DNA from: a virus
DNA: 64,000 nt
Direction: 5' to 3' (one strand)
IMG/VR virus record: IMGVR_UViG_3300005911_000002
Span: 9,213 to 73,212 of that record
A model generated the notes under the pieces. That model did no database searches. It was not told the DNA's origin and saw nothing but the letters and a program-made list of their open reading frames with translations. Below are positions 11,693 through 47,206 of the stretch, one piece after another. A program made the translations under genes and the position numbers. Within the stretch, counting starts at the first letter, position 1; the number at the start of each line of letters is the position of its first letter.

Positions 11693-12811
11693 TTACCTAC
11701 GATCCGTAAGTGCACCATATCCAGAAGAAGCGGCCATTATCCCGCCGAATGTTCCGGGTGCGTAACTAGCTACGTCGGTTATTTTGTTCGTAATCGCCTG
11801 GGTACCGAGATTTTTTTTGGCAGTTGTGAATTTAGATCCTAGCGCTTCGTTTTTTGATATCTGGGAGTCTATTCGGGACTCATTAGCTTTTAGCGCATCG
11901 GTATATACGCCTCTATTAAGTGTCAGATTCTCAGGATCCAATTTTTTAGTTATGCTAGCTCTTGTTTTTGAGAAACCATCCAATTTTCCTGTACCTTTCC
12001 TAAAGTTTCTATCAGCGGTACCCACATCTTCAGCAAGACCCATTAACTTCTGAAGCCTAGCAGGTTCTTGCTTAGCATACCACTTTCTAAACGCAACTCC
12101 ACCCACAAGAGCACCTATTGGGATAATCATAGAAAGAGCTCTATCAGTGAATGTTCTATCATCACGATATCTATCGTTATCTCCCTGAGATCTTTCAGCT
12201 GTTTTCTTTTCATCGGAACTGCCGAACAGAATATTAGTAAGTGCAGCTGCACCTGTAAGTCCTCCGGTTGTTTTAATCAGGTCCATCTCTAACGAAGCAT
12301 CTGAATCATCAAGTCGCTTAGTAGACTTACCTATTAAACTCGTGGCGTCGTCCTGCCTTATTTGATTAACGTCTAGACGTCCCTGGAGATAATTTCCAAC
12401 CTCGCCAGCGTTCCGACTTTCTGGATTGTTATCCAAGATACCTTTGGTTTTATCATACAGCTTTCGCTCTCTTTCACGTCCCAACCCGTGGTGTACAAGC
12501 CTGCTATTCGGATCGATTATAGTCTTTGTGGTTGGGCTCAAACCCATACTTTTCATAGCTGCGCCTTCCGCCGCTGTGTGCATAGTTGCTCGTCGATTCT
12601 CTACGCCACTTATCATTTTCTTAAGACTGTTGCCCTCATCTCCTAACCCGCTTAAATTATGAGACGTCATTCGGATGGTTTTCTTTAAATACTTCTGCAA
12701 TGCGCTGTACCTGCCAGCAACCAATAGCGGTGATGCCATAGCCGCTACGCCAAGTCCCGCTGCTGCATAATCCCCAACAACCCATTCTGCCTTCTTAATC
12801 TTACTAGTCAT
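11693..12811 (-). CDS. Two-module membrane/coiled-coil protein, putative virion or ejection protein
   Basis: Four hydrophobic Gly/Ala-rich helices flanking helical segments; KTA at the module junction. Confidence 0.5.
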   Translation of the reverse strand: MTSKIKKAEWVVGDYAAAGLGVAAMASPLLVAGRYSALQKYLKKTIRMTSHNLSGLGDEGNSLKKMISGVENRRATMHTAAEGAAMKSMGLSPTTKTIIDPNSRLVHHGLGRERERKLYDKTKGILDNNPESRNAGEVGNYLQGRLDVNQIRQDDATSLIGKSTKRLDDSDASLEMDLIKTTGGLTGAAALTNILFGSSDEKKTAERSQGDNDRYRDDRTFTDRALSMIIPIGALVGGVAFRKWYAKQEPARLQKLMGLAEDVGTADRNFRKGTGKLDGFSKTRASITKKLDPENLTLNRGVYTDALKANESRIDSQISKNEALGSKFTTAKKNLGTQAITNKITDVASYAPGTFGGIMAASSGYGALTDRR

Positions 12812-12832: not shown

Positions 12833-14269
12833 TTAAAATCTAACTCGGCGCCGGACCATCGGTCTTACGCTAGCGTTAGTTAAGTTTAATGGTTGTGAGA
12901 ATAGCTGATCTACTCTCATTTTGTTTTTCTTCTTTTCTATCTCTTCGTAAGTATCCGGGAAGAAACCTCCCGAGCCAGCTATCCCCGCACCGCCTACTAT
13001 TGCAGCGGCTGGGTACCCCATGCCACCCCGAGCTTTCTCCAGCAACTCCTCAGTGCGGTCACGGTCAGTAAATGCCGGCAAGTGTTCGTCGGTTGCGTCG
13101 ATATAGTTCTTCCGGGAACTCGAAAGATCACCGTCAGCGTGGCTTTTAATCGCCTTTCGCGCGGCAACTGCATTATCACTGGCAGTCCCAAGGTTCTTGT
13201 GGGCAACACCTTGTTCCATCGAAGGTGTTGTGTCGGAAAGGTTGCGCATGGTATTTTTAGCACTATCAAAAGCGTCGTTGGCCTTAACCCTACTATTATT
13301 AAGCTTTTCCGCCTTCCATTGTTCTGATTTCCACATATTCCTAGTTTTAACTACCTGGTCATCGAGGCCTTTGTACCTAGCAGCGCCATCCTTAAGAACT
13401 TTCTCTAACCCCTTGATCTTCCTACCTTTTAAATAAGCATAGATAGCCCCCCCAGCAGCAATGGTTGTCCCTACTCCTGCAAGTATAATCCTCATGGCTT
13501 GGTTGATTGTTGTGTCCTCAGCTAATTTGTAGTTCTTGTTATTCTGCTCTTCTGAGTACATTCTAGACCCAAGAATAGTCCCAGAGGCCAGCATACCGCC
13601 CCCAACTAATCCGCTAAATCTTGCTCTATCGTATGTGTATTCTCCGACGTCACTTAGCTCCTGTAGCTCGGAACCCTTACGTTTAAATTCATTCAGTGTA
13701 TTGATCATATCTGTTTTAGTTTTATTAACATGCCCCATATAATCGGGCTTTCTGGCCATCGTGCCCTGTAAATCGTCGAGGTGTCCCCTAGCTGCTTTCA
13801 GGTTTATGGCCGAATCTGCCATATCATTCTGTTTAGCATGAACTTGGTCAGAAAGATCTTTTATCATACTCCGTGCTCGTGAATAGGACTCTGTTGGAAG
13901 GCGCTCGGCGTCCTGCTTAAGTGCCATTATTTTACTTTTCAGATCCTCTATGTCAGCCACATTCTGCTTAAATATACCCTCCGCTCTGAGTGCCTTATCT
14001 GTCCTGCTAGCAAGATCGGCCATAACCTCAGGACCATTTTGAAATATCTTCTGAGCATCTGCATTACGTGATGTTGCCTCAAGGAACTCAGCCCCTATGT
14101 CTGCAAGGTCTTCTCTTCGTTTCTTAAGCTCTGGCATAAGTTTTTTTAACTTGTGCCTTGCGCCTGCACCCATCAAAGCTATAGCAGAACCTACAGCAAT
14201 AAGTACCGCCGGTACCTTATAGTTCATAGCTGGTGCTGGCTTTCTATCTTCTGAATAATATAGTCCCAT
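12833..14269 (-). CDS. Two-module membrane/coiled-coil protein, putative virion or ejection protein
   Basis: TM-coil-TM architecture twice, separated by NYKLAE. Confidence 0.5.
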   Translation of the reverse strand: MGLYYSEDRKPAPAMNYKVPAVLIAVGSAIALMGAGARHKLKKLMPELKKRREDLADIGAEFLEATSRNADAQKIFQNGPEVMADLASRTDKALRAEGIFKQNVADIEDLKSKIMALKQDAERLPTESYSRARSMIKDLSDQVHAKQNDMADSAINLKAARGHLDDLQGTMARKPDYMGHVNKTKTDMINTLNEFKRKGSELQELSDVGEYTYDRARFSGLVGGGMLASGTILGSRMYSEEQNNKNYKLAEDTTINQAMRIILAGVGTTIAAGGAIYAYLKGRKIKGLEKVLKDGAARYKGLDDQVVKTRNMWKSEQWKAEKLNNSRVKANDAFDSAKNTMRNLSDTTPSMEQGVAHKNLGTASDNAVAARKAIKSHADGDLSSSRKNYIDATDEHLPAFTDRDRTEELLEKARGGMGYPAAAIVGGAGIAGSGGFFPDTYEEIEKKKNKMRVDQLFSQPLNLTNASVRPMVRRRVRF

Positions 14270-14282
14270 GATTCCTCCAAAT

Positions 14283-17200
14283 TTATTCTATAACGGACGG
14301 GCCGTAAACATATCTAGTAAACATAGATGATTCTGGTCCAGCTATGTGAGTACTATCTCCAAACGCTACTCCCTTCTGTAACGATCCTTTGAGCTCTCTG
14401 TACCCAAGACGCTGTAACCAGTCCTGGTTCATAAGTGGAGACCTGTTAGTTCCAATTATAACCTTGTCGGCCTTTATCGGAGTTGTAAACACTCTAACTG
14501 TTTCCACACCCTCGTTTAGAAGAGCTTCCATCATCTTATCATCTATCATTGACCTGATAGGAAATCCTGACACACTTTCAGCCAGACGTTTCCCAACAGA
14601 AAATTCTACATCCATTTCTTTAACTGAGTTCTCATTATAATGGTTTACAAACGATGTGTCAACTATGTCTCCAGGAACTACTGATGATGATGTTCCTGCA
14701 TCTGTCACCCTGGAAAATTTACCCATTGACCTCGTAACTACTTCTGCAGTAGATCTCTTAATCCCAACTCCTGCAGATTGGTACAGACTTGTTAACTCAT
14801 CAGCTATAAAATCTAGCGCCGCGTCTGCACCTTTAATGTCCTTAATATCCATTGGATGTATATTTCCATAGCTAACAGAATCCCCAGCATGTATCATGTC
14901 CCCCTTTTTTACTTTAAGACCTACGGCCGCTGGCACATATAATTTTTTAGTTCCTATATTGACGTCCCAGCCGCCTATAGATGATTCATTAATATCCGTA
15001 ACAAACCCATCCTTAGGGGCTAGGATAGCTCTATCTTTAATCTTCTTAGGTAGTTGGGTTATCTGCCTTATTCTGTCTAAAGACCCGATAGCCCCAACAC
15101 TTGATCCTACTGTAGAACCAGTATGGAACACCCTCATAGCCATTTGAACAAGAGGCTCTCCTAATGTCTGGGCTGCCAACGTTCCTACGTTATCACCTTT
15201 TCCAGGAAGAATCCCGTTTGCCAGATAGCCATGGCATCTTCTGCAGATACCCTTTATAGCTTTGCACTTAAGAGGAGATCGTGCGTATACTTCCCTAATA
15301 CCATGATTCTTTAAGTTTTTAATTGCGTTAGCGTCAAGGTGCTGATCTTTTGGGTGAATAACCTTACCACCCACCCGGATGTTACGTACTGCAAATCTAT
15401 TAAGCACCTCTGGTGATGATACAGGGAACATTTTACCTTCTGATGTTTTACAGTCCTCGGTTGTAATAGTTATTCCAGACGAAGCAGCGAGTATCTCTTT
15501 ACTGAATGCACCCGGCTCTACAACCGACTTAGCTTTGGACACACCACCCATCCTGGCAGCATAACCCATACCCCAAAAGGCAGATGGGCTGAGTCCCGAT
15601 GCGTATGAATCCTTTGATATTATCGGAGGAACGGATCCACCAGGACCCTGGAACATAATAGGTGAACCGATTATCTGTGTAACCGGTGCCCACTGTCCTT
15701 TTGCCCCCGACGCGTCTACATAGTCGTAATATGTGTCTTTCATTCTATCTTTGATAACGTCTTGTATCTTACCTTGGATCTCAGCAGCGTTCTCTACGCC
15801 AGTAACCGTCTTTATAAGGTCGTCGACTTCTTTTATTGGTGCTAAATCATCGTAATTCAAAGACATGCCACGTCTTGTTGCATACGTATCTCCAATTAGT
15901 TTGACGTCTTTTAGAACCTTCCCTATTTGGTCGGGAGTATTCTTCACCACGCTCTTTACAGCAGCGGACAATGATCCGTCAGTAACTGCTTCGTTAATAT
16001 CAACACCATCTGGGAGCGCGTTATTCACCATGATACGTCCTATATTAGTCATTTTGCGTTTAACTTTTATCATATCATTTTCGGAAATATCGCCGGCAAG
16101 GTATGCTTCGAGAGCATCCGTAGTCGTTTTATATTTCTTGTCAGTACTCTTACCATCCTTAGTCATAGCATACAGCCCTGTTAGGTCGTCCCAGCTAGGC
16201 ATGTTCATAACCTCCCCCTTAGTTGGGTGAATTACGTTATTACTTGGAAGCATGAGGTGCGCCTCGGCCTCAGCCTTAGCAGTTACGGGAGTATGTACCA
16301 GTACCTTGTCACCGTCGAAGTCCATGTTAAACCCTTTAACAACCATCAAAGGTACACGTATAGATTTTCCCTGTACCAGCTTAGGCTTAAATGCCATAAC
16401 CCCATACTTGTGTAACGTCGGGGCTCTATTAACTATAACATGTTTTTCGTCCATAACCTTTCCCAGAATCCTGGCTGCTACCGGGGTCTTGTTATCCACT
16501 TCAGCCATAGCCTCGAACGGAGTCATACCTGCAGATAGCATCTTTCTTTTGATCATTGGTTCGAACATCTTATATGCCATCTCTTCCGGAATACCTATCT
16601 CATCTATATCCATCTTAGTGTCAATCGATACCACGCCAGCACCAGTTAGGTTCTGTCTTTTCTTGACCATCTTCTTTTGGAAGTATCCCTCTTTTGGGCT
16701 GTCCCCTGCGATTAGTTCTACAAGTCCTTTCTGGTTAGCTTTCTTTGGGTTGAGTCTAGCTTTATCTGAGGCAGTCGCGTATCCCATAAGCCTCTTAGTT
16801 TGATCGTAGATATCCTTAGCTATATTTTCCTGCTCACGCTGAGGAACAAACTTACTTTTCGATGCATTATTTAATAGTATTAAATCTTTATATAGATCAT
16901 TTAAAGGTGAGTTAATTAAATTCCCAGTATCATCTGGATACACGGGCCTAATCTTAGGTGGTACAACCGGCACATTGTGTAAAAAGAATGATCTAGCTGT
17001 GAGTTTCCCGTCTATCATGTTCTTGAGAAACCTCATCTTCTTGTTCAATTTATTCAGCGCACTACCTTCTGCAGTAGCCGCTTCTTTTTTTAGGTTAGCA
17101 AGCTCCTCCTCCGGAGATATTTTGGATAGCATGGCCTGCATAGCGTCCCCAAATTTTTTACCATCAACCTCAGTTCTGCCCGCTACTAAGTCGTCGTACT

Positions 17201-20200
17201 GCGTTTGGGTTATATCCAATATATTCTTAATAGCTGGCTCAAATACTGGGTTAGGTATCTTACGTGTAAGTGCTATGTGTGACCAATTCTCTCCGTCGGT
17301 GCCGCCAGTTATCTTAATATCAAATAACCCGTTTTTTTCCGGTAGCAATGTTTTTGCAATTACCACTTTTGCCTCAGTAACCTCTCCCTTAGACTGCCCT
17401 AAAATATCCCTGTCGGTAAGTGGTACAAGTTTTATCTGATCGCCACTCTTCTTAGGCTTTATCCCGGCGCCCTTTAAATAGTCCATAAACATATGGTATG
17501 AAAAAGTTGGGCTCGGTGTAGGTAGTTGTGATCCTGTGATATACGATCTCCAAAATTCAGGGTTGTCCTGTGATTTATATATGGCTATGTCTCGGAGGTT
17601 GGCCTTAGCACCGTGTGCCATTAGAGAATACATCGGCAACATCCCTACGGTCTTCCCCCCAGACTTACCACCAGCAGTAGGAGTCTTATCGAATCCTGTC
17701 GGCCCATAATAACTTCTAGCAGAGAACCCCTTATCCTCTTTGTATTTTAGTTTATAAATATATTGCTTTCCCCAAAGAACCTTGTCGGTAGTCTCTTCCC
17801 CCTCTACCATGAGTTTCTCATTGGGCTTTATTCCTAGTTCATCAGCTTTTTTTTTAACCGAAGTATAATAACTTTCATCGCTAAACCCTGGAACCATTAT
17901 AGGCGCACCTTGCGCATCCGCAACCCTGCCGAGAACAACTTCGTGCTCCTGTCCAACGTTCAATCTCTTCTGTACTGGTAGAGGTGACATGATCAACCCT
18001 ATCTTCTCACCATTAGGAGCCGTCGGGGCTTTCTCATCTGGGAATACTGCAGAAATTATACCCTTGTTACCGTATCGTCCGGAAACCTTATCACCCTTCT
18101 TTGCTTGCTCGGATGTTTTTACCTCTATGAAAATAGCCTTACCAGTATCGCGTACTGATATAACTTCACCGGAAGCTCCATGCTCCCATCTAACTATCTT
18201 TTCCCTGAAAGGACTAGACAATGTAGAATGCACTTTTGCCAAAAGCTTGTCTTCCTCGGACAACGACTTTTCTACAAGGTATGCGGCGATCACACTTCCG
18301 TCGTGAACCTTCGACCCTTTCTTAACAATACCATCCTGATCCAAGTTACTTGTCTCCAGGGAGGATAACTTACCCATCGCAACGTTCTTAAAACGTGTGA
18401 AATCGAAGTGAGCTCCCTTTTTTGAAATCTCCATCTTGTACATATGCTCTGACGTCATCTTCTTGGCACCAGATTCAAACAGCACGATAGCATCCTCTGA
18501 ATTCATAGAATGATACGGCATATAAGCCACATTAAGATTAACGCCAAGAGCCAGTGTATCGTCTTTTTCATAGTTTGACCTCATAAGTTTATCGCCTTTC
18601 TTAACGGTGCTACCTTCTGATACAGATGCTTCTGTAGTAACGTAAGAACTATCCCCTATCTTGTAATTCTGGTAGAAGGGTAGTTTCTCCGTTTCACCAT
18701 TCTCATACTCGACGGTCATGCTCTTCTTTCCAACCGAAGTAACCTTCCCAGCTCCTTGTGCGGTAGGGACAGAATCCCGTGCCATAATCTTCTCGAAGGA
18801 GGTTCCTGTTCTGTCATCAAGTGTCTGTATAAGGGGGGCTTCTGGGTTCTTTAGTAGTAATGTCTGCCCTGCCATCTTGGCGGACATATTAACCCTGTTA
18901 CCCATATTACTGCTTAAAAACGGAGTTAGGTTTGTTGATGGTGAGTATAGCTCAGTAGCATACCTGAATATATAATCCACCTCGCTAGAAGGAACTTTAT
19001 CCTCACTCCCCTTACTAACGGCATATACCTCGTCATCACGCCATTGTTTCTTATTGTAGTCATATTGGCCTGCAAATGCGATCGTGTACTTGTACATGTC
19101 ATCATTAGATACACTCTCTTCCTGGCCTGTTTTTGGATTATATAATTTCTTAGAAAACGCATCGCCCTTCTGCATAGTTCCAACAGGAAGTTTGACAGAA
19201 ATACCAGCAGCGTCATCCGGTGTATGGAGTGGATCCAGTACCCCTGCAGAAGAGCCGTAAACCATCATGGCTTTTTCGGTTATAGCATGGTCTGACTCAA
19301 TACCACCCTCACCTTTCCTGGTGTAGTGTATATCCTCATCTATAAAATTTAGCGGATTTACAAAATCTATAGGGGCTGCAAGCGACGACTGGTTAAATAG
19401 CGGTGTTATATTCCCATTAAGGTAGTTAGTTGGGACAATCTCTTTAATAGTTTTACGAGTTCTCATACGAACTTTTAACGCACCCTGGCTACTCTTGACC
19501 TTGCGTGGATTTAGTATATAATCGTCCGATAACATGGCTACCTCATCAACTGCCTTTGCAAAATACGAGTCATCCTTGTTATCCTGTTTCCCGTTGTCCT
19601 TGAAAACCTCGAGTATCCTTGATGACGTAGCTAACAGGGTTTTGGCATCCATCTTTTCGAAGGATGTTCCGAGAGTTTTCTCAGTTGTTTTTTTGTCGAG
19701 GACTGTGTCGTTAAACCTGTCCTCCACAGCTCCCTCGGCGGCGTCTATATCTTTGTATGCTTTGTATGTATAGTTTGTTGCAAAGTTTAAAAAGTCAGAC
19801 TCATGCTTGCTACCCCTAGAAGAGTTCGCTTCAAAAAGTTCTGGCCCCCATGCTTCTCGCATATCAGAATCAGGTATATCCAGGTGTGTAAGTATCGAGT
19901 ACACCGGATATTTTCTGCCTTTAAGTACAACAGTGAATATCTTCTTTACAGGGTCAAGAGACATTGTTAGGTTGTGTCCTTTTTGGAGGTTCAACTTGGC
20001 CTCGATCTCCCCGTTTTTCTTCACTTCGGTGTATACTCCAGACCGCAGCCTGAGCATTTTGGTTACCTTGAATTCGGTACCACCCACGATATATGTGCCA
20101 GCAGCTGTTCTAACGGGCATATCCCCAATCTTGACCTTAGCCTTATCAATTAGCTCAGTACCAACCCTAAAGGAAAAGGTTCCGTAAATAGGTACAGTCA

Positions 20201-20393
20201 GGGACTTATCGCTTTCCAGGAGTTTCCTGAATTTTTCAGGGTTTATTACATCCGCGTTGTTTGTATTAATACTTAGCTTGTCTAGTGAGAGTGATCTGCT
20301 ACCGTCCGTTATTGGGAACGCTGCTTCCTTGTATTTCTCAAATACCTCAGCGAGTCTATCGTTAAATTCCTTGGCACTTTTTATATTATACAT
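14283..20393 (-). CDS. Phage DNA-directed RNA polymerase, fused beta-beta' single chain (~2036 aa)
   Basis: beta: NSEDAI, GDKVSGRYGNKG. beta': NRAPTLH, NMDFDGD, RSPLKC..GICRRCHG, GEPLVQMAMRVFHTG. Start moved to ATG 20393 (AGGGGA SD; a promoter lies inside the longer ORF). Confidence 0.93.
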   Translation of the reverse strand: MYNIKSAKEFNDRLAEVFEKYKEAAFPITDGSRSLSLDKLSINTNNADVINPEKFRKLLESDKSLTVPIYGTFSFRVGTELIDKAKVKIGDMPVRTAAGTYIVGGTEFKVTKMLRLRSGVYTEVKKNGEIEAKLNLQKGHNLTMSLDPVKKIFTVVLKGRKYPVYSILTHLDIPDSDMREAWGPELFEANSSRGSKHESDFLNFATNYTYKAYKDIDAAEGAVEDRFNDTVLDKKTTEKTLGTSFEKMDAKTLLATSSRILEVFKDNGKQDNKDDSYFAKAVDEVAMLSDDYILNPRKVKSSQGALKVRMRTRKTIKEIVPTNYLNGNITPLFNQSSLAAPIDFVNPLNFIDEDIHYTRKGEGGIESDHAITEKAMMVYGSSAGVLDPLHTPDDAAGISVKLPVGTMQKGDAFSKKLYNPKTGQEESVSNDDMYKYTIAFAGQYDYNKKQWRDDEVYAVSKGSEDKVPSSEVDYIFRYATELYSPSTNLTPFLSSNMGNRVNMSAKMAGQTLLLKNPEAPLIQTLDDRTGTSFEKIMARDSVPTAQGAGKVTSVGKKSMTVEYENGETEKLPFYQNYKIGDSSYVTTEASVSEGSTVKKGDKLMRSNYEKDDTLALGVNLNVAYMPYHSMNSEDAIVLFESGAKKMTSEHMYKMEISKKGAHFDFTRFKNVAMGKLSSLETSNLDQDGIVKKGSKVHDGSVIAAYLVEKSLSEEDKLLAKVHSTLSSPFREKIVRWEHGASGEVISVRDTGKAIFIEVKTSEQAKKGDKVSGRYGNKGIISAVFPDEKAPTAPNGEKIGLIMSPLPVQKRLNVGQEHEVVLGRVADAQGAPIMVPGFSDESYYTSVKKKADELGIKPNEKLMVEGEETTDKVLWGKQYIYKLKYKEDKGFSARSYYGPTGFDKTPTAGGKSGGKTVGMLPMYSLMAHGAKANLRDIAIYKSQDNPEFWRSYITGSQLPTPSPTFSYHMFMDYLKGAGIKPKKSGDQIKLVPLTDRDILGQSKGEVTEAKVVIAKTLLPEKNGLFDIKITGGTDGENWSHIALTRKIPNPVFEPAIKNILDITQTQYDDLVAGRTEVDGKKFGDAMQAMLSKISPEEELANLKKEAATAEGSALNKLNKKMRFLKNMIDGKLTARSFFLHNVPVVPPKIRPVYPDDTGNLINSPLNDLYKDLILLNNASKSKFVPQREQENIAKDIYDQTKRLMGYATASDKARLNPKKANQKGLVELIAGDSPKEGYFQKKMVKKRQNLTGAGVVSIDTKMDIDEIGIPEEMAYKMFEPMIKRKMLSAGMTPFEAMAEVDNKTPVAARILGKVMDEKHVIVNRAPTLHKYGVMAFKPKLVQGKSIRVPLMVVKGFNMDFDGDKVLVHTPVTAKAEAEAHLMLPSNNVIHPTKGEVMNMPSWDDLTGLYAMTKDGKSTDKKYKTTTDALEAYLAGDISENDMIKVKRKMTNIGRIMVNNALPDGVDINEAVTDGSLSAAVKSVVKNTPDQIGKVLKDVKLIGDTYATRRGMSLNYDDLAPIKEVDDLIKTVTGVENAAEIQGKIQDVIKDRMKDTYYDYVDASGAKGQWAPVTQIIGSPIMFQGPGGSVPPIISKDSYASGLSPSAFWGMGYAARMGGVSKAKSVVEPGAFSKEILAASSGITITTEDCKTSEGKMFPVSSPEVLNRFAVRNIRVGGKVIHPKDQHLDANAIKNLKNHGIREVYARSPLKCKAIKGICRRCHGYLANGILPGKGDNVGTLAAQTLGEPLVQMAMRVFHTGSTVGSSVGAIGSLDRIRQITQLPKKIKDRAILAPKDGFVTDINESSIGGWDVNIGTKKLYVPAAVGLKVKKGDMIHAGDSVSYGNIHPMDIKDIKGADAALDFIADELTSLYQSAGVGIKRSTAEVVTRSMGKFSRVTDAGTSSSVVPGDIVDTSFVNHYNENSVKEMDVEFSVGKRLAESVSGFPIRSMIDDKMMEALLNEGVETVRVFTTPIKADKVIIGTNRSPLMNQDWLQRLGYRELKGSLQKGVAFGDSTHIAGPESSMFTRYVYGPSVIE

Positions 20394-20427
20394 GAACGTT
20401 GTGTCCCCTTCATAACCGATTTCTCTA

Positions 20428-20456
20428 ATTCTATCACGTTCAAGATTTGTTGTCAA
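20428..20456 (-). promoter_or_regulatory. sigma70-type promoter of the RNAP gene
   Basis: TTGACA-17-TAGAAT with extended -10 TG. Confidence 0.8.
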
Positions 20457-20515
20457 TTTGCATAATATATTATATATTAACCCAGTAATAGGAAGGTGAC
20501 TAGGAAATATCATTC

Positions 20516-21007
20516 TGTCATGTTTTGACCCATAAATGTCATGTTTCGGGTCAAAAATGTCATGTTTCGGGTCAAAAATGTCATGTCTAAAAATCAGTGC
20601 TCACCTACTACTATACTATACTATAACTATTATATTTATATATATATAATAATAGAATACATGACAAAATACCAGAATTATTAATGGTAACTACTCATGT
20701 ACGGATTGAAAAAAATTATTAATTAGTGTTTCATTTTTTTTTATGGTTTCCCTAAGGGGGTACATTTTTTTTTCTACATTTTTGTCATGTCTGAGAGTAA
20801 ATGCCTTGGTACGACTGGTCGGAAGCGCGAGACATTTTGTTTTCAAAATGTCATGTCTAGTTTTGATAGAAGTCTGATATCCCCGTCTATGACTAGTCTA
20901 GACCCCTGTCAAAAACGTCATATTTTTGTCATGTCATTTTGTCCTGTTTGGGTATTTTTGTCCTGTTTTGTTTATGATCGCACATAGTTTTGTAACAATT
21001 GTTACAA
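20516..21007. repeat. Iteron array, AT-rich tract and palindrome: candidate replication origin
   Basis: TGTCATGT at 20516, 20537, 20558, 20579 (21-bp period), inverted at 20659, again at 20783, 20849, 20927; AT tract ~20607-20660; 18-bp palindrome at 20990-21007. Confidence 0.7.
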
Positions 21008-21036
21008 TTTTGGTATAAATGACCAAGGAGGGATTT

Positions 21037-29553: not shown

Positions 29554-29587
29554 AAAAAGCACGAGGGTTTGGCTCTCGTGCTTTTTT
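29554..29587 (+). terminator. Terminator after the capsid gene
   Basis: AAAAGCACGAG/CTCGTGCTTTT stem. Confidence 0.85.
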
Positions 29588-29588
29588 C

Positions 29589-29617
29589 TTGTATTTTTGT
29601 CGTATATGTGATATAAT
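29589..29617 (+). promoter_or_regulatory. sigma70-type promoter
   Basis: TTGTAT-17-TATAAT with TG. Confidence 0.7.
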
Positions 29618-31792: not shown

Positions 31793-32502
31793 TTAAAATA
31801 GCAGGATATCAGGGAGTTTCTACTGTAGACTACCCTGGAAAACTTTCGTTTGTGATGTATACTTATGGGTGCCCCATGAGGTGCCCTTACTGTTTCAATA
31901 GTGCTCTCGTAGATCCATGTATGGAAAAAGATATGACATTCCTAACAAAAGATGATATCTACTCTGTGCTGGATTCTAGAAAAGATTTTGTAGAGGCTAT
32001 CGTTATATCTGGTGGAGAGCCTACCCTACATTCAGGGTTAATACCGTTTATTAGGGAGCTCAGGGATAGGTATCCGTTAGCTATCAAAGTAGATACTTCC
32101 GGGATAAACCCAGGAGTCCTGCTAAAACTTATGGATGGGGTGGACTATATCGCCATGGATGTGAAAACATCTTTTGATAAGTATAGTATGTTCTCCCCGG
32201 ATGTAACTGCTTGGAGGAGAATACTCGAGAGTATGGTATTTTTAAATAATAACGGTAGGTGTGACTATGAGTTTAGAACTACCGTGTGGAAGGGCGGATT
32301 CAATCTAGAGGATGCAGTTTTAGTAGCTAGATTTATGTCAGGCGGTGCTACATATTATCTACAGAACTTGGTGGATAACGCTAGCCCGATGCTTCTCCCA
32401 GACAAAGTCGGGGATGAGAGATATACGAAGAAAGAAGTGCTTGCGATAGCAAAAGAACTCGGGGATTCCGGAGTAACTGTAAAACTTAGGGGGTTTGATT
32501 AA
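31789..32502 (+). CDS. nrdG: Anaerobic RNR activating radical-SAM enzyme
   Basis: STVDYPG, CPMRCPYCFN, SGGEPT, AMDVK, YEFRTT. Confidence 0.9.
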   Translation: MIKIAGYQGVSTVDYPGKLSFVMYTYGCPMRCPYCFNSALVDPCMEKDMTFLTKDDIYSVLDSRKDFVEAIVISGGEPTLHSGLIPFIRELRDRYPLAIKVDTSGINPGVLLKLMDGVDYIAMDVKTSFDKYSMFSPDVTAWRRILESMVFLNNNGRCDYEFRTTVWKGGFNLEDAVLVARFMSGGATYYLQNLVDNASPMLLPDKVGDERYTKKEVLAIAKELGDSGVTVKLRGFD

Positions 32503-33149
32503 TGCGACAAGAGAGTATAGAGTATGTAAAACAAACACACCGGAATATGGTATCTTTTCCGAAAATGGTGGGGATATCGTGCTTGCAGTGGATGTTCCAA
32601 AATAACCCTGAATATCCCTGGAGCCCAAGCCCAACCGAATCAAAAATACTTATACAGGAAGATGGGATATTCCCAGAGGAAGTCGGTACCAGGCCTATCG
32701 TAGTTATGTCTAGAGCCCCTATATCGTTCTTGAGTACATCCATGGACCAACGGAAATCAGGAACTTTCCAGTTTATGGGGGGTGCGAGGAATTACAAGGA
32801 GTCATTTCTAGACTTAGTCCAGTGTTCTTTGACGTTCAACTGTATTGGAAAAACTAGAATTGTAGCTGAATATATAGCCATGGCCGTAGTAGCTGTATTT
32901 CATTTCTTTCATACTGACGTTCAGGCGGTATTTAACATACATGACCTGGAGCTACGATCTATCGGCAGCGACCAAGCTTTAATGGGGGCTGATGGCAGGC
33001 AATTCCTAGCTCATTTTATCCCTGTGAACGTTCATATGATATGGCCTTATGAGTGGACTAAATATCAATTGGACCCGGAGGTATTAAGGCAATTGTTCAT
33101 AGAGCAGGTAGATGAGAATGGTCTGACTTTTCAAACAACAGACCCATAG
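32502..33149 (+). CDS. Putative tail terminator protein
   Basis: Size and position between neck and sheath genes. Confidence 0.45.
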   Translation: MRQESIEYVKQTHRNMVSFPKMVGISCLQWMFQNNPEYPWSPSPTESKILIQEDGIFPEEVGTRPIVVMSRAPISFLSTSMDQRKSGTFQFMGGARNYKESFLDLVQCSLTFNCIGKTRIVAEYIAMAVVAVFHFFHTDVQAVFNIHDLELRSIGSDQALMGADGRQFLAHFIPVNVHMIWPYEWTKYQLDPEVLRQLFIEQVDENGLTFQTTDP

Positions 33150-33182: not shown

Positions 33183-33425
33183 CTACTCTACCGGAGCTTC
33201 TCCGACTTTCGAAGGGGTCTCCTTATGATTCGCGGCTGCCCAGCAATTAGTCAAAGTATGCAGGGCGTCCAACATAATATGATCACTCCGAACATTAATT
33301 CTAGACGATATTAGCTGACTCTTATTATCAGCATCCTCTTCAATAATGCACAGCACAAACTGAGTTCCATGTGTTCGACAAAGCTCGTCTACTACCGATA
33401 TAGCCTTGCTTAATGATTCGTTCAT
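33183..33425 (-). CDS. Small hypothetical protein
   Basis: GGAGG SD before ATG 33425; hairpin terminator at 33151-33172. Confidence 0.55.
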   Translation of the reverse strand: MNESLSKAISVVDELCRTHGTQFVLCIIEEDADNKSQLISSRINVRSDHIMLDALHTLTNCWAAANHKETPSKVGEAPVE

Positions 33426-33519
33426 AATAACCTCCAAGTTAAGTAATATTGCTTTATGCCACGTTTATAGTATATTAGAAAAACAGGTATAAATAAGTAA
33501 CAATCAAAAGGAGGGGTAT

Positions 33520-34467
33520 ATGACCAAAAAGATATCACCGTTGGTAGCCCTCCCTAGTGGGTGGGTACTTCCGAACACACACCAGAAATATGCTAGTGAT
33601 AGGAGGAATATCATGGACACACTATATTTCGCAAAACTAGTCGGTACAATAGATAAGTTGACAGACTCTGAGAAGATCACAACCTCCGCGTGGGGTTTGT
33701 TAGATGAACTCGAGGTAGCCGCACGAGGAACATTTTTGGGAAAGATTTGCATCAGCCATGGGAGTTCCGTCGGGTGCTACTTTACAACAGCCCCTCCGTG
33801 GGTTATGGCTAGTGAAAAAACACCCTATGGGTTATTTATGCAGCATGACGGCAGGGTAGCTCGGAAGTATTTCCTGCAAGGTAAGGTAGATAGCATCCTT
33901 AAAGTATTGGATACCTGGGCTAACCAAGTAAAAAACGGAACCCCTCTGTTAGCTATTGACGTCAAGAGAAAGCATGATTTCGAGGACACCCTGGCGGAAT
34001 ACGAAAAGTTCGTAGAACTCACTGACTTAGAGTACGACGTCGGGGTGTTCCTGCTCAAGAGCACACCTGATAAAGAAGCTGCCTCAAAGAGTCTACTGGA
34101 AATTGTCAAGGTAGGCGAGCATGGTCCCAACCTGCTAGTACCACTAGACAAAATGGCGTGGACTCCGGTAGAGGGGAACAGGTACGTGATAGAAGCGGGT
34201 AAAACTAATATATGGAATCGCACATACAGTGAGAGGCAGCGAGAATTTAAGTGCAGACTCTTGGCATACCACGCGTTAGCAAACGATGATCTACCCGACT
34301 TCCTTGTACACTTGCTGGGTGTAGCTGATAGGGGTATCCTGGAATCCCATCTCGGCAAAAGACTAAGAGATAAAGTATATAGGCAGCTAGGAATATGGGC
34401 TCTCATGGGCAAGTCGAAAGCTGAGAATAACATCAGAGAACTGGCAGATCAGGATTTCCAAGATTAA
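33520..34467 (+). CDS. Hypothetical protein directly upstream of the ncRNA
   Basis: AGGAGG SD; 315 aa; no recognised motif. Confidence 0.7.
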   Translation: MTKKISPLVALPSGWVLPNTHQKYASDRRNIMDTLYFAKLVGTIDKLTDSEKITTSAWGLLDELEVAARGTFLGKICISHGSSVGCYFTTAPPWVMASEKTPYGLFMQHDGRVARKYFLQGKVDSILKVLDTWANQVKNGTPLLAIDVKRKHDFEDTLAEYEKFVELTDLEYDVGVFLLKSTPDKEAASKSLLEIVKVGEHGPNLLVPLDKMAWTPVEGNRYVIEAGKTNIWNRTYSERQREFKCRLLAYHALANDDLPDFLVHLLGVADRGILESHLGKRLRDKVYRQLGIWALMGKSKAENNIRELADQDFQD

Positions 34468-34484
34468 GTATTATATGGTATAAA
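34456..34484 (+). promoter_or_regulatory. Putative promoter of the ncRNA
   Basis: TTCCAA-17-TATAAA with TG. Confidence 0.5.
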
Positions 34485-34490
34485 GAAAAG

Positions 34491-34867
34491 AATAAGAAAC
34501 AGTTACTACGACGGTAGTAACTGTAGGTACTACGTCTTTCCGTGCTGCGGGGGAGCGTATGTTTAGTGATAGGCAGCTGTCCTACGTGGGGACAATGGAA
34601 GTAGGGTAATTGGTACCCAACCACGAGCGGATCCTTTGTACCATCCGCTAGTAGCTACATAGCTACGCACCTCGAAGCTACGATGCTTCAAGTACCTAAG
34701 CGCATGAACGGCGCAATGTCCAACCGAGGACACTAAACTCGGCAATAATATCTTGGGGAAGATCCAAGACGCTGGTAAGGCTCAGGCGGACATAAGAGCT
34801 AAGGACTTAGATCCGAATTGAATAGGCGCAAGCCGAATTATATAAATTTAGCCTTCGGGCTTTTTTT
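34491..34867 (+). ncRNA. Large structured non-coding RNA, family unassigned
   Basis: At least 10 nested helices, long-range pairs 34524-31/34691-98 and 34716-21/34788-93, GCAA tetraloop, terminal UUCG hairpin plus T-run; no credible ORF. Confidence 0.7.
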
Positions 34868-35003
34868 ATCCCTAAAGAAAGATTTATATGATATAATAAG
34901 GTGTTCTGATAGATAAAGCAAAATCATAAAAAATACACAAATATAATAAAAATTGCTTGACGAATAAACTGTATTGATGTAAACTAATTGTAGAGGTTGA
35001 GAG

Positions 35004-35594
35004 ATGAAAAAATATATTAAACTATCAGAATATGCAAAAAATCATAATCTAAGTTATGTTACTGCCTATAACCACTTTAAAAAAGGTTTTGTTCCCAACA
35101 CAAAACAATTGATAACCGGAACAATCTTGGTTGAGGAAGAGCAAGAAAAAACTGTTGGTGTGATTAAAAAAGCGTGTGTATACGCAAGAGTACCCAGTAA
35201 TGAAATGAAAGACAACCTGATAAGACAACAAGAAAGACTAGAAAACTTTGCGATTTCTAATGGGTTTGAGGTTATAAAATCAGTTAAAGAAATAGGTTCT
35301 GGGTTAAATGATAAGCGGAAGAAACTTGAGAAAGTGTTAAAGGACGATAGTTGGAATGTTCTTATTGTCGAACACAAAGATAGACTAACTAGATTTGGTT
35401 TTAATTATATAGAAACACTTCTAAATAACATTGGGAAAGAAGTAATTACGGTAAATAAACAGGATGATAAACAAAATGATTTAATGGAAGATTTAGTTTC
35501 TATAATCTACTCATTTTCTGCCAGAATGTACGGGCTGAGAAGAAGTAAGAGAAAGGCTGAAAAGATTATTAAAGAAATACAAGAGGAAGATTAG
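35004..35594 (+). CDS. tnpA: IS607 serine recombinase/transposase
   Basis: N-terminal HTH; YARVPS (canonical YARVSS), EIGSGLN, EHKDRLTRFGF, FSARMYG.R. Confidence 0.92.
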   Translation: MKKYIKLSEYAKNHNLSYVTAYNHFKKGFVPNTKQLITGTILVEEEQEKTVGVIKKACVYARVPSNEMKDNLIRQQERLENFAISNGFEVIKSVKEIGSGLNDKRKKLEKVLKDDSWNVLIVEHKDRLTRFGFNYIETLLNNIGKEVITVNKQDDKQNDLMEDLVSIIYSFSARMYGLRRSKRKAEKIIKEIQEED

Positions 35595-36805
35595 TGAATT
35601 TAGTTGAACAACATATTATAAAAAAGAAACATAGGTTATATGACGAGCTGGATAGCCTGTCATTCCTCTCCAAAAATTTGTATAATGCTGCCAACTATAT
35701 TATCAGACAGGGATTTATTAATAATAAGCAGTATTTAAATTACACTAAAGTCTTTCATCTAATAAAAAAGACGGTCGATTATAAACAGCTACCGGCCAAG
35801 GTGAGTAATCAAACATTAAGGTCTCTGGATGGTAACTGGGTTAGTTTTTTCAGGGCAATAAAAGATTGGGGAAAGCATCCAGAAAAGTATAACAGCAAAC
35901 CCGGACTCCCTAAGTATAAGAAAAAGTCGTCTGGCAGGAACATCATTATCTACGAAAAACAGGCGGTGGGAAAACGCCATCTTCTTAAATATAATGAGAT
36001 TAAATTGTCTAAGTCTAATATTAGTATAAGAACAAAAATCAGCTATACTGAGTTAAGGCAGGTTAGGGTTATTCCAAGGTATGACCACTATATAGTGGAA
36101 GTAGTACATGTCAAAAAGGAGGTAGATAATGACCTGAATGAAAATAATTTTCTTGGAGTTGATATGGGCATGAATAATTTGTGTGCTGCAAGCACTTTGG
36201 ATGGGGACTTTTTCCTGATAAATGGAAGACCCCTAAAGGCTATAAACCATTATTACAATAAAAAACTAAGTAGACTAAAATCTGAGCTGGAGAAATCTAA
36301 CAGTAAAAGAAAATCGTTAAGAACCCGAAAATTAACTAATAAAAGAAACAGGAAGATAAAACATTACTTACACAAAGTTAGTAAGTTTATTATCAACTTC
36401 TGCTTAACTAACAATATTGGTAAAATAATCGTGGGGAAAAATGATAATTGGAAGTCTGAAATATCCTTGGGCAAGAAAACTAACCAGAACTTTGTTCAAA
36501 TACCACATTCACTTCTTGTAAATCAGATTAAATATAAGGCGAAGTTACAGGGGGTGTCCGTAATTCTTCAGGAAGAGAGCTACACCTCCAAGTGTAGTTT
36601 TATAGACAACGAACAGGTTGGGAGACATGAACGGTATGCTGGAAAGAGAATAAAAAGAGGATTATTTAAGTCTAAAGAAGGAATTCTGATAAATTCAGAT
36701 ATTAACGGTAGCCTGAACATTATTAAAAAAGTAGTCTCAAACTTCACTATTCGTGAAAATGAGATAAAGGGCTTTGCAGTAAGCCCAAGATTGGTAGCTT
36801 TATGA
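35594..36805 (+). CDS. tnpB: IS607 TnpB RNA-guided nuclease
   Basis: GVDMG (RuvC-I), IIVGKN..WK, EESYTSK, NSDINGSLNI (RuvC-III). Confidence 0.92.
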   Translation: MNLVEQHIIKKKHRLYDELDSLSFLSKNLYNAANYIIRQGFINNKQYLNYTKVFHLIKKTVDYKQLPAKVSNQTLRSLDGNWVSFFRAIKDWGKHPEKYNSKPGLPKYKKKSSGRNIIIYEKQAVGKRHLLKYNEIKLSKSNISIRTKISYTELRQVRVIPRYDHYIVEVVHVKKEVDNDLNENNFLGVDMGMNNLCAASTLDGDFFLINGRPLKAINHYYNKKLSRLKSELEKSNSKRKSLRTRKLTNKRNRKIKHYLHKVSKFIINFCLTNNIGKIIVGKNDNWKSEISLGKKTNQNFVQIPHSLLVNQIKYKAKLQGVSVILQEESYTSKCSFIDNEQVGRHERYAGKRIKRGLFKSKEGILINSDINGSLNIIKKVVSNFTIRENEIKGFAVSPRLVAL

Positions 36806-36858
36806 GTTATGATTCTAAAGGAAAAAGATTTTTTAATATTTTTCCATACTGTAATCTG

Positions 36859-37068
36859 ATGAAGATAAAGAATAATAGAGGTGGTGGACCAGGTATACCT
36901 ATATGGTTACTAGGTGTTTTTCTACTATGCGCATATGGTATTCCCGCGGCTAACGTAGTACTGCTAATGGTGGCTGTTTATAAAAAGAGTAAGAAGCTCG
37001 CTATAATATCAGGAGTCCTGTGGATACTAATGATAAGCTTTTACGTATGGCTAACATGCCTACGGTAA
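36859..37068 (+). CDS. Small two-TM membrane protein
   Basis: MKIKNNRGGGPG...; two hydrophobic helices; ATG just outside the IS right end. Confidence 0.6.
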   Translation: MKIKNNRGGGPGIPIWLLGVFLLCAYGIPAANVVLLMVAVYKKSKKLAIISGVLWILMISFYVWLTCLR

Positions 37069-39888: not shown

Positions 39889-39917
39889 AAGTGCTCCTCC
39901 GGGAGTACTTTTTTTTT
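39889..39917 (+). terminator. Terminator after the tube gene
   Basis: AAGTGCTCC/GGAGTACTT stem followed by a T-run. Confidence 0.8.
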
Positions 39918-40015
39918 GCCTTGTTTTTCCTGCTCCTATGTGATAGTATATTTAGACAATATTGCTGAGATGCGTCAAATGCGGAAAGCAATTATAAATA
40001 CTTGGAGGTATTACA

Positions 40016-44565: not shown

Positions 44566-46493
44566 TATGCCCTCCCCGTAGCAGTTAGTACTTGTTGCAT
44601 CAGCCCTTCAATTTTAGACATATATTCCCTGGATTCATCTATATTTACTTTTGATAATTCAGCATAGGATGCCATTATATTACCCGACAGCCTATTAGCA
44701 TAATCGACTGAAGTAAACTCAGTTATAAGTATATCTAATACCGCAAGCATATCTACACTAGTGGTTTCGAGCTTTAGTTTCCTCAGCTCCTGACACAAGC
44801 TACCTTCGTATGTAGATGTTGTAGGCGTTGCCTTAAATACATCTTTAGTTGCACCCTTGCCAATGTCATCCCCGAGTTTTTTAAGACCCGCGGTATCGGC
44901 TGTGCTCTTTATATCCTCTAAAAAATTATCTTTAAAATCTTTAACGGGGGTAGAGTCTAACTTGTTATACGCAGATATTACACTGACTACTTCAGTATTA
45001 AACGAAGTTAGCATGGTCTCGGTAGTTGACCGTAGTTCCGGTGTCATGACTTGCGCTCCAGTTATAAGGTCCTCTACAATCCTAAGGGCAGCACTAGCTT
45101 TATATACAACCTCGGTAGTATCCGGCTCCTCCCACGCAGACACTGCAGTTGCTGCCGATGTATACGCTGACTTTGCCACGAGAGGCATACTGGCTACAGC
45201 TGCACGCCCAACACTTGACGTTGCAATAGAGTCCAGATATGAAAGCATATCAGTAAACGAATCGTAAACGTCACGATAATACGGTAACCCCTTCGACCTA
45301 GATGTCGATTGCGTATACGCCGCGGTCTTCTGCTCCAGGTCTTCGATTTTACCTTTTATAGCTCCCGGCATTACTTTTTGTAAAAAATTAGATCGAGCAT
45401 ATTTCTCGGTATCGCTGAACAACGACATAGCCATATTAAGTTGATATCGTATGCCACTGGTATTCTCCGAGTTATATAGCGTGTAAGATACTATATTTGA
45501 GAGAATATCACTGAACGATACCCCATATAAAATACCCTGCACTAAAATCCCTTCCAAGGTTGTTGTATCGTACTGACGACTAAAGCTTATAAGATTTGCC
45601 GATGGCATGCTTCTCCCCATTAGTTGGGCAACTTGCTCTGGTGTGAATGACCCGGACATCTCTTGTAGTGCTATGGATGTAATAATACTTTCTGGAGTAG
45701 CTCCCGACGTCATACCTACTATAACCTGCGTGGCAACCCCGTTAGGAAAGTATTTTCCGAATATACTCGATATCATAGTGTTCTGGGCTGTACCTTGCAT
45801 AACTGCGGAGAGTATTTCTGGAGGAAGTAGTGCCCTAAGCTCATTATAGGCAGCGTCTTTTACAATATCACTCGTAAGGTTACGTCCCACAAGACCATTT
45901 AGCAGGGCCGCGGATATCTTAGAGTCTATTGTTGTAGGGAGTATTTCCTGTGGGAGTGTTTTATTAGATACCATTTGTATCAGACCCCAAGCATCACTTA
46001 TGGTACTTGACATCCCAGATAGTACAGTTCTTAATACCTGGGCCCCAAGGTCATATCTGTACGGCTCAGTGCTAACTATATTCTTTACAGTTGAGATTGT
46101 GCCAGATACGTCCGGTATGTCGTAGTTACCGCTCAATGCCTCACCCAGAAGAGAGCTTATTGGGCTAGCCATATTCTCCAGGGCGCTAACAGCCTCGTCT
46201 CTAAGGGTAGTGGCATGGGATATCGCATTAAAACCCATCCCTAGTATAGTTGTTGGAGAAGTTGTCATCCTTTGCAGCATAGACGCTTGTATTCGGTCCG
46301 TAGTACTCGTGTCTTTTAGATTATCAATGGGTGTCATATTATACTGGTCCATTGTTTTTTTCATCTGACCTGCCAATGCTAGTGCAGTTCCTTCTTCTTT
46401 ATCAAGGGTCTGGTTCTTCTGCTTTTTCCACTCCTTGTACTCTTTCAGAGAATTACGCACCTCACTGTCAGTATACCATGTGTATGTAGTCAT
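44565..46493 (-). CDS. Hypothetical helical virion-associated protein
   Basis: 642 aa, translationally coupled within the baseplate operon. Confidence 0.6.
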   Translation of the reverse strand: MTTYTWYTDSEVRNSLKEYKEWKKQKNQTLDKEEGTALALAGQMKKTMDQYNMTPIDNLKDTSTTDRIQASMLQRMTTSPTTILGMGFNAISHATTLRDEAVSALENMASPISSLLGEALSGNYDIPDVSGTISTVKNIVSTEPYRYDLGAQVLRTVLSGMSSTISDAWGLIQMVSNKTLPQEILPTTIDSKISAALLNGLVGRNLTSDIVKDAAYNELRALLPPEILSAVMQGTAQNTMISSIFGKYFPNGVATQVIVGMTSGATPESIITSIALQEMSGSFTPEQVAQLMGRSMPSANLISFSRQYDTTTLEGILVQGILYGVSFSDILSNIVSYTLYNSENTSGIRYQLNMAMSLFSDTEKYARSNFLQKVMPGAIKGKIEDLEQKTAAYTQSTSRSKGLPYYRDVYDSFTDMLSYLDSIATSSVGRAAVASMPLVAKSAYTSAATAVSAWEEPDTTEVVYKASAALRIVEDLITGAQVMTPELRSTTETMLTSFNTEVVSVISAYNKLDSTPVKDFKDNFLEDIKSTADTAGLKKLGDDIGKGATKDVFKATPTTSTYEGSLCQELRKLKLETTSVDMLAVLDILITEFTSVDYANRLSGNIMASYAELSKVNIDESREYMSKIEGLMQQVLTATGRA

Positions 46494-47206
46494 AATTTGC
46501 TTACTTTCTCTTTTAGTATATTTGAAATTCGCAGTCTAACTGAGCTAACCCACCTGGGTGACTTATTTTCCTGTATTGCAATATCTTGTGTAGATTTTCC
46601 GCTAAGTAGACTATCCATTATGCGATTTTCGGTCTCATCAAGTTCATACCTAGTCATCTCAAGTAAATCTTTTGGTGTGTAGTTCCGCACAACGGAATCA
46701 TCTCCACGTCCAACGTCAGCTTCTGGTTCGAGAGTATAATCTTTCCGAACCATTCTTCGTAGATCCCTTACTTGAGTTTGTGGTATATTCATGTGGGTAG
46801 CTATCTCAAGCTCGTCAGGATCTCTCCCAAGGGATTCAGTGAGCTCCGTTACAGCCGTGTTATATGGTGAGATAAGTTGTATTTTACTTTCCGGGATTCT
46901 CCCCGTGTTTTGATGATTTCCAACATACCTATATAATTTTCTCAGATAGTAATCAACATGAGTTCCTATGGCAGCTTTCCCAGGTTTGTACGTTTCCAGA
47001 GCTTTGCCGGCTAGCCTATACCCCTCAGCCTTTATAGCTTGGAACGGTATCGGGGCGTTTCTATACTTACTTGCATGGTGAACTATAGCAGGTGTGAGGG
47101 ACTCCATTAAATCATCAAGGGACTCTGTACTCCCCGTATCTTTCCAATCAGTCCATAACGCAAGCTGCCTATCAAATCTTGTTGTGGTATTCGGCTGAGA
47201 TTCCAT
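46490..47206 (-). CDS. Sigma70-family RNA polymerase sigma factor
   Basis: Region 2 (IVHHASKY..KALETYKP..IGTHV), RIPE, region 3 LGRDPDELEIA, region 4 HTH. Confidence 0.8.
   Translation of the reverse strand: MESQPNTTTRFDRQLALWTDWKDTGSTESLDDLMESLTPAIVHHASKYRNAPIPFQAIKAEGYRLAGKALETYKPGKAAIGTHVDYYLRKLYRYVGNHQNTGRIPESKIQLISPYNTAVTELTESLGRDPDELEIATHMNIPQTQVRDLRRMVRKDYTLEPEADVGRGDDSVVRNYTPKDLLEMTRYELDETENRIMDSLLSGKSTQDIAIQENKSPRWVSSVRLRISNILKEKVSKL

Follow-up and report, generated by a model that had tools for sequence, protein, structure and literature searches.

Gene-free stretches of phage DNA may serve as spacers, or they may themselves encode an RNA. We addressed this question for positions 34491-34867 of a phage genome fragment. 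The window, i.e. the whole stretch of 64,000 nucleotides that was analysed, represents most of a 73-kb IMG/VR virus record with an estimated completeness of 41%. An earlier reading of the letters alone, below referred to as the sequence-only reading, had proposed that positions 34491-34867 specify a multi-domain structured RNA with its own promoter and terminator, analogous in kind to ROOL/GOLLD or a packaging RNA, and possibly partnering the protein encoded upstream. The features that are relevant to this proposal are compiled in Table 1.

Table 1. Features in and around the stretch at positions 34491-34867 of the window.
Feature	Position	Strand	Description
ORF84	33183-33437	-	Leftmost gene of the island, divergent from ORF315
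ORF315	33520-34467	+	Predicted orphan protein gene; stop codon at 34465-34467, 24 nt before the stretch
Promoter-like extended -10 motif ATATGGTATAAA	34473-34484	+	Predicted start at ~34491
5' hairpin	34499-34524		11 bp, perfect; pair probability 0.95-1.0
'Domain 1'	34524-34698	+	8-bp closing helix round seven short hairpins; predicted fold only
Long-range helix	34524-34531/34691-34698		8 bp; closes 'domain 1'
Five inner hairpins of domain 1 listed in the sequence-only reading			5-7 bp; fully complementary
'Domain 2' region	34699-34836	+	Three to five short hairpins
Closing helix of domain 2, ATGTCC/GGACAT			6 bp; pair probability 0.08
Two hairpins of domain 2	34724-34742 and 34751-34769		Fully complementary
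Weak terminator-like hairpin AGCC-UUCG-GGCU + U7	34849-34867	+	4-bp stem; -5.1 kcal/mol
Second promoter-like motif ATATGATATAAT	34886-34897	+	18 nt past the U-run
IS607-type insertion	35004-36805	+	TnpA 35004-35594 (serine recombinase), TnpB 35594-36805; putative extent of the element ~34900-~37100

Coding potential, composition and relatives of the stretch

A frame scan revealed several stop codons in each of the six reading frames of 34491-34867, and the coding signal was lost after position 34467, the best 120-nt window scoring 0.12 as compared to a mean of 0.29 and a minimum of 0.12 for the training genes. The stretch is non-coding. Since no frame reaches coding statistics past the stop codon of ORF315, it is also unlikely that the stretch represents a recently decayed gene. 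The GC content is 0.48 over 34491-34867 and 0.51 over 34500-34799. This is the highest value among all gaps of at least 70 nt between our gene calls, the others ranging from 0.28 to 0.44. With 536 nt, the gap upstream of tnpA that holds the stretch is unusually long.

Searches with the 4227 models of Rfam 15 gave no match in the 64-kb window at the gathering threshold, and permissive scans of the stretch (E≤10) returned only chance lines of 11-22 bits on hairpins (STnc370, SpF51, malK-II, PVT1_6, the ClpQY promoter and two snoRNAs). No riboswitch, T-box or leader family was matched by the stretch in the Rfam scans, ARAGORN identified no tRNA or tmRNA genes in the window, and the group I intron model RF00028 had no match at E≤10. 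These results agree with the view that the stretch lacks tRNA, tmRNA and intron signatures and that it belongs to no Rfam family.

Two further candidate functions were considered. A role at the DNA level of four GTAC sites was rejected, as GTAC is not rare (260 occurrences in 64 kb) and clusters of four in 200 nt occur at 10 places. The search for antisense targets within the window yielded matches of chance length only, the longest exact match comprising 12 nt and the longest imperfect one 21 nt at 86%.

Relatives of the stretch were sought at the DNA and RNA levels. No match was obtained by blastn against phages and plasmids, and a DNA search of 15 records of distant kin gave only matches of 12-19 nt (best E-value of 0.06). 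Likewise, nhmmer and blastn detected no relative at 9 loci, and no similar sequence was present in five genomes with TnpB relatives. A single-sequence covariance model of domain 1 (R1), which scores itself at 219 bits, found nothing at E≤1 in 21 records of kin or of TnpB carriers. Viral contigs were scanned twice and metagenome contigs once for exact patterns, which reach near-identical copies only, and no match was obtained. In the collections searched, where the reach was that of the exact-pattern scans and of ~26 records examined with models or sequence, the stretch appears to be an orphan sequence.

Predicted fold of the stretch

All helices listed in the sequence-only reading were found to be fully complementary, and the mean pair probabilities of the domain 1 helices were 0.78-0.98 in the partition function. 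The full 377 nt of the + strand have a predicted energy of -126.6 kcal/mol (z-score of -3.85), and none of 100 shuffles was as good. This z-score is carried mainly by the 11-bp 5' hairpin, which on its own reaches -14.9 kcal/mol with a z-score of -5.78 (0 of 200 shuffles as good) and is the only element of the stretch that is clearly beyond chance. When the 5' hairpin and the 3' end were removed, the remaining core of 312 nt (34525-34836) had a z-score of -1.39, and 6 of 100 shuffles were as good. Similar values were obtained for domain 1 alone (z-score of -1.67; 13 of 200 shuffles) and for positions 34699-34867 (z-score of -1.90; 7 of 200 shuffles). The proposal of a multi-domain structured RNA thus did not withstand this analysis, because without the 5' hairpin the stretch is no more stable than its shuffles. 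The ornate multi-domain architecture is unsupported, and an 8-way junction of short hairpins is a typical MFE drawing on arbitrary sequence. More generally, a list of hairpins read by eye, together with a whole-region z-score that is driven by one hairpin, is insufficient to establish a multi-domain RNA.

The second domain was supposed to be closed by ATGTCC/GGACAT, a helix that hardly forms in the ensemble (Table 1). Instead, the MFE structure and the ensemble favour a pairing of 34771-34781 with 34851-34860 (probability of 0.78; 9 of 11 positions paired), which competes with the terminator hairpin. The possible pseudoknot GGCTC/GAGCT amounts to a 5-bp complementarity.

For the reverse complement, the z-score was -3.35 over the whole region, and the core reached -1.70. 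The + strand is favoured by a fold that is 9 kcal/mol better than that of the - strand and by its higher rank in a comparison of GC-corrected energies with 425 genome windows of the same length, 4 of which had lower values on the + strand, as compared to 20 on the - strand. In a different part of the window, a gap of 262 nt with a GC content of 0.42 (57091-57352) lies within the genome window of lowest GC-corrected folding energy on the - strand (residual z-score of -3.65).

Promoter and terminator signals

Immediately before the stretch, TGG-TATAAA at 34476-34484 corresponds to TGn followed by a TATAAT-like hexamer. The degenerate motif ATRTGRTAKWAW occurs in four copies in the 64 kb (at 29606, 34473, 34886 and 39938), all of which are intergenic and on the + strand, but since it was derived post hoc from these same four sites any enrichment over the 0.73 copies expected is a circular figure. 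The two copies outside the flanks of the stretch precede genes at 29648 and 40016. The motif at 34473-34484 was not listed by a sigma-70 scan that requires four of six matches in the -35 hexamer, because its -35 hexamer is poor.

At the other end of the stretch, the UUCG hairpin (34849-34867) has a z-score of -1.48, 20 of 200 shuffles being as good, and two other terminators in this phage have energies of -19.2 and -12.5 kcal/mol. It was not listed by the terminator scan; intrinsic terminators are taken to combine a U-run with a preceding GC-rich stem of 5 bp or more, and the 3' stem of the stretch has 4 bp followed by U7. The same scan lists the 11-bp hairpin at 34499-34524 as a terminator for the - strand, on which it is followed by a U-rich tail. 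Of the promoter and terminator that had been ascribed to the stretch, the former can be retained as a predicted phage-type extended -10 motif, whereas the latter is weak with its 4 bp and -5.1 kcal/mol.

A terminator followed by a promoter is also encountered at 29555-29617 and 39890-39949, where the motif is located 16-19 nt past the terminator. The same layout is found at the end of the stretch (34867-34897), with a U-run and, 18 nt further on, a motif copy. On account of this recurring layout, a phage transcription unit would end at the U-run, and the IS607 insertion would be placed downstream of the next phage promoter. The putative transcript may lie on either strand, as the strong terminator-like element faces the - strand and both strands fold similarly.

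The phage and its insertion island

The window belongs to a large tailed phage with a family A DNA polymerase, NrdD, its own RNA polymerase, a sigma-like protein and a baseplate J protein. The RNA polymerase assignment relates to an ORF of 2075 aa (14283-20513, - strand) with Rpb2 domain 6 followed by Rpb1 domains 1, 2, 3 and 5, as would befit a fused beta/beta'-like enzyme, and an ORF of 237 aa (46490-47206, - strand) matches sigma-70 region 3. Directly adjacent to the RNA polymerase gene, a gap of 505 nt between divergent genes (20514-21018; GC content of 0.32) contains 8 of the 11 copies of TGTCATGT in the window, as compared to 1.8 expected in the whole window. Some of these copies are part of longer 21-nt tandem units, and the array looks like an iteron-type origin or operator.

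The record or part of it was present in 20 of 22 listed run rows (19 salt-lake metagenomes and one labelled 'metagenome'), none of which is on record as RNA. In four salt-lake runs (X6, X7, X9 and X10) spanning 2010-2018 the sequence was identical, with no variant in 34491-34867 as judged by read mapping at 80% likeness.

Recognisable phage kin in GenBank, found via the 612-aa ORF at 37226, were limited to Salmonella phage Arash and three Vibrio phages (26-36% identity). The product of this ORF is sheath-like, with a faint PHROG tail-sheath line. An alignment query with this protein gave 13 loci at 25-34% identity, and scans of viral and of metagenome contigs with it revealed no closer phage kin. 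A gene of ~200 aa immediately precedes the counterpart of the 612-aa gene in Arash and Vibrio phage D181, so that the flanks are adjacent and there is no island. ORF215 (32502-33149) weakly resembles this ~200-aa neighbour (E-values of 5e-5 for D181 and 0.001 for Arash, from a single comparison each), and for the next gene past the 612-aa ORF there is a match to Arash gp237 (E-value of 2e-24). In the window, ORF215 and the 612-aa ORF are 4,076 nt apart, and the island between them contains ORF84 (- strand), ORF315, the stretch, the IS607-type element and ORF88. In three closer kin contigs (34% identity), the same slot holds an ORF of 295 aa that is unrelated to ORF315. Since the flanking genes are adjacent in distant kin and a different ORF is present in closer kin, the stretch is cargo of a variable insertion slot. 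The island itself is, as judged from these comparisons, lineage-specific and located between two conserved tail-module genes.

An ORF-free gap of 377-378 nt in these three kin contigs (L018, L019 and L021) was considered as a homolog of the RNA and rejected, because it reads as a protein of the ORF215 family. At 8195-8572 of L018, and also in L019 and L021, this ORF215-like gene shows no ORF of at least 70 aa over 377-378 nt and is still family-like (WNED...), which may be due to a frameshift, an unusual start or a sequencing error. Arash, for its part, has two unannotated gaps of ~0.9-1.0 kb (11557-12462 and 13346-14343) inside its annotated structural region.

The gene upstream of the stretch

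ORF315 is preceded by a strong Shine-Dalgarno sequence, AAAGGAGGGG, and by the promoter-like TTGCTT-16-TATATT (read by eye). Its codon statistics of 0.20 in frame versus -0.46 and -0.50 out of frame indicate that it is coding. The GC content of the gene is 0.47-0.49 in windows and 0.50 at third positions. No match to ORF315 was found in Pfam, PHROG or PADLOC, and tblastn against GenBank phages gave none. Only ORF315 itself was retrieved from 5.8 billion clustered proteins (word-indexed search), from 1.84 billion representatives (full HMMER search) and in an IMG/VR scan. At the structural level, there was no usable match in the ESM Atlas (pLDDT of 0.30 for its own model), and the AF2 model was unusable with a pLDDT of 34.7. 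By all these searches, ORF315 is an absolute orphan. The divergent ORF84 had only a DUF2326 line in Pfam at an E-value of 0.009, which is under the cut-off, and was assigned to no family. ORF315 has no terminator of its own, and the stretch would therefore also be the 3' tail of the ORF315 mRNA.

Two repeats were observed around these genes. A 12-nt inverted repeat, 92% complementary, connects 33446-33457 with 34913-34924 and places TTGCTT on each outward-to-inward strand; the left copy forms the -35 of the ORF315 promoter-like site, and from the right copy, transcription could proceed leftward in the direction of the 11-bp hairpin. In addition, the end of ORF215, ORF84, ORF315 and the stretch are enclosed by an imperfect, collinear direct repeat in two parts, one of 15 nt (87%) and one of 12 nt (92%), with copies at 33009-33042 and 34859-34894, a distance of 1850-1852 nt. 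This repeat may be a chance match or a trace of the arrival of a cassette.

A tentative transcription unit and its alternatives

It is plausible, and unproven, that the stretch represents an orphan ncRNA. The reading that we favour, tentatively and with limited confidence, is that of a small stand-alone non-coding transcription unit on the + strand, an 'RNA moron' in the accessory island that would specify a trans-acting RNA of ~375 nt. RNA polymerase would start at ~34491 from the extended -10 promoter at 34473-34484, and the first 35 nt would form the very stable 11-bp hairpin that would guard the 5' end. This would be followed by ~310 nt of ordinarily foldable, GC-rich RNA. A fraction of the transcripts would end at the weak U7 hairpin (34849-34867), 18 nt before the next phage promoter, leaving a leaky 3' end, and the stretch would double as the tail of the ORF315 mRNA. 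The product would work as RNA, in trans, and its likeliest mode of action would be the binding of a protein, either ORF315 or a host factor. We infer the transcription of the stretch, its strand, both ends, the higher-order fold and the function.

The evidence that favours such a transcription unit consists of the high GC content, the upstream extended -10 motif and the recurring terminator-then-promoter layout. Against it stand the core fold at chance level, the reverse strand that folds nearly as well, the weak terminator and the strong terminator-like element that faces the opposite way. The more far-reaching idea that the stretch encodes a first representative of a novel class of large, structured phage RNAs is unlikely. 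This RNA would have its own promoter, form an RNP with ORF315 and be accessory cargo in the tail-module slot; the role of such an RNP would be, for example, in anti-defence or host takeover.

We consider it almost equally probable that the stretch is the functionless untranslated tail or spacer of a horizontally acquired orphan cassette composed of ORF84, ORF315 and this tail, in which the short hairpins arose by chance and the 11-bp hairpin acts either as a leftward terminator that prevents antisense transcription into ORF315 or as a 3' stabiliser of the ORF315 mRNA. The finding that the core folds no better than shuffles fits this possibility, and so does the scoring of the hairpin with its U-rich tail as a - strand terminator. 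Moreover, 4 of the 425 genome windows, which are mostly coding, are lower in GC-corrected energy, and both ORF315 and the stretch are orphans. The GC content of the cassette (0.47-0.49 for ORF315, with a GC3 of 0.50) is near that of the stretch, the high value of which may thus reflect a foreign cassette origin. On the other hand, 375 nt of idle DNA would be unusual for this phage, the other gaps of which are short or AT-rich; a phage-type promoter motif lies exactly at the start of the stretch, and no residue of a decayed gene is present in any frame.

A fairly unlikely alternative is an RNA gene on the - strand, which would start at TTGCTT-17-TATTAT (~34926-34898, read by eye), proceed leftward and end at the 11-bp hairpin and U-rich tail at ~34490. 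In its favour, the sole strong terminator-like element of the stretch faces this way, the z-scores (-3.35 for the whole, -1.70 for the core) are no worse than those of the + strand, and the 12-nt inverted repeat pairs the -35 region of ORF315 at 33446-33457 with 34913-34924. However, the candidate promoter agrees with the -35 hexamer at only three of six positions, is missing from the list of the scan and may fall inside the left end of IS607. Furthermore, several G-U pairs of the + strand helices would become A-C as read from the helix sequences (a tally of the helices in the sequence-only reading gives only two), and the rank against the genome windows is lower (20 versus 4 of 425 lower).

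We consider it very unlikely that the stretch acts in cis as a leader or attenuator, transcribed from the promoter at 34473, in which the terminator hairpin (34849-34860) and the 34771-34781/34851-34860 pairing would set the read-through into the downstream genes, which before the IS607 insertion would have been ORF88 and the sheath-like gene. Structural genes indeed lie downstream, the terminator alone is weak, and the competing pairing is favoured over it in the MFE structure as well as in the ensemble (probability of 0.78). However, this pairing covers 9 of 11 positions and may be due to chance, the stretch matches no riboswitch, T-box or leader family, and the separate promoter motif right after the U-run would make the downstream genes independent of read-through.

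Returning to the + strand transcription unit, if it is real, the few large non-coding RNAs of phages would be joined by an unclassified RNA gene of ~375 nt, located in a slot that is occupied by other cargo in related phages. For now, the stretch is best filed as a ncRNA candidate from a single sequence, as yet unvalidated, in an accessory island of the phage.

The IS607-type element downstream of the stretch

The IS607-type element was recognised by domain matches to Resolvase (7e-17), OrfB_IS605 (1e-25) and Cas12f1-like_TNB (2e-9), with a MerR-like/resolvase arrangement of TnpA. Its GC content is 0.28-0.37 as compared to ~0.43 for the phage. Contigs of the runs X6 and X9 bridge the end of the stretch into the IS, and no joint that skips the IS was detected in the four runs X6, X7, X9 and X10. 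The nearest TnpB relatives are 32-46% identical, and no other copy of this IS was found (0 matches for the left-end 20-mer). At 7 viral and 6 genome loci with TnpB relatives, nothing like the stretch was present nearby. ORF88 (36802-37068, + strand) has a start that overlaps the stop of tnpB (ATGA), and two hydrophobic membrane spans seem to make up its last ~70 residues. Possibly ORF88 is a phage gene whose original promoter was that at 34886; alternatively, it may overlap the guide-RNA region of TnpB.

According to a report on IS607-family IStrons, these elements carry a group I intron in the long gap just upstream of the serine-recombinase tnpA and tnpB, and the introns match the Rfam group I model RF00028 (10.1101/2023.11.20.567912). 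In the whole 73-kb record, RF00028 gave no match at E≤10 (4 candidates scored), nor did local Rfam scans, and in a control search the model had matches in 8 of 14 genomes. At the U-run the GC content steps from 0.51 to 0.28, and the U7 hairpin and the phage-type promoter motif at 34886-34897 stand between the stretch and tnpA. No gene is interrupted by the stretch, as ORF315 ends at its own stop codon before it. For these reasons, a group I intron and membership of an IStron were rejected.

An RNA that belongs to the IS607-type element in the manner of an IStron intron, but that is an undescribed non-group-I ribozyme or other structured RNA, is extremely improbable: the 536-nt gap with a putative structured RNA just upstream of tnpA/tnpB resembles the layout described for IStrons (10.1101/2023.11.20.567912), but the known introns match RF00028 whereas the stretch does not at E≤10, the GC step, the U7 hairpin and the phage-type promoter motif separate it from tnpA, ORF315 is uninterrupted, and the TnpB relatives at the 7 viral and 6 genome loci have no similar sequence nearby.

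Comparison with known systems

Like the group I intron of an IStron, the stretch occupies a long gap that immediately precedes a serine-recombinase tnpA and a tnpB, the feature from which IStrons were recognised (10.1101/2023.11.20.567912). Unlike such an intron, it has no group I match, is set off from the IS by the GC step, the U-run hairpin and the promoter motif, and interrupts no gene.

The phi29 pRNA shares with the stretch that the latter is a candidate phage non-coding RNA with a predicted promoter of its own and a proposed protein partner. The differences are that the stretch has no covariance-model match, the phi29 pRNA model being included in Rfam, and that the present phage is large and tailed, encodes a family A polymerase, an RNA polymerase of its own and a baseplate, and is not phi29-like.

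The analogy to ROOL/GOLLD or a packaging RNA that was drawn in the sequence-only reading would be one of size alone, and ROOL and GOLLD RNAs are longer than 377 nt. Like these RNAs, the stretch is a large non-coding part of a phage genome with many predicted hairpins. In contrast to them, it has no match in Rfam 15, either at the gathering threshold or at E≤10, although the ROOL and GOLLD models are presumably included in this release, and there are no tRNA genes nearby. Moreover, its fold is at chance level, and it has no homologs and hence no covariation.

Lastly, morons carry protein genes as cargo, and sRNAs that are embedded in 3'-UTRs and have an internal promoter measure 50-150 nt. The putative cargo of the present island differs from both in that it would be a 375-nt RNA, with no target complementarity above chance within the window. 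Since the counterparts of the flanking genes are adjacent in Arash and D181, the stretch is accessory cargo in the same way as morons are. Like morons and 3'-UTR-embedded sRNAs, it forms a predicted promoter-to-terminator unit between conserved phage genes that would at the same time be the tail of an upstream mRNA.
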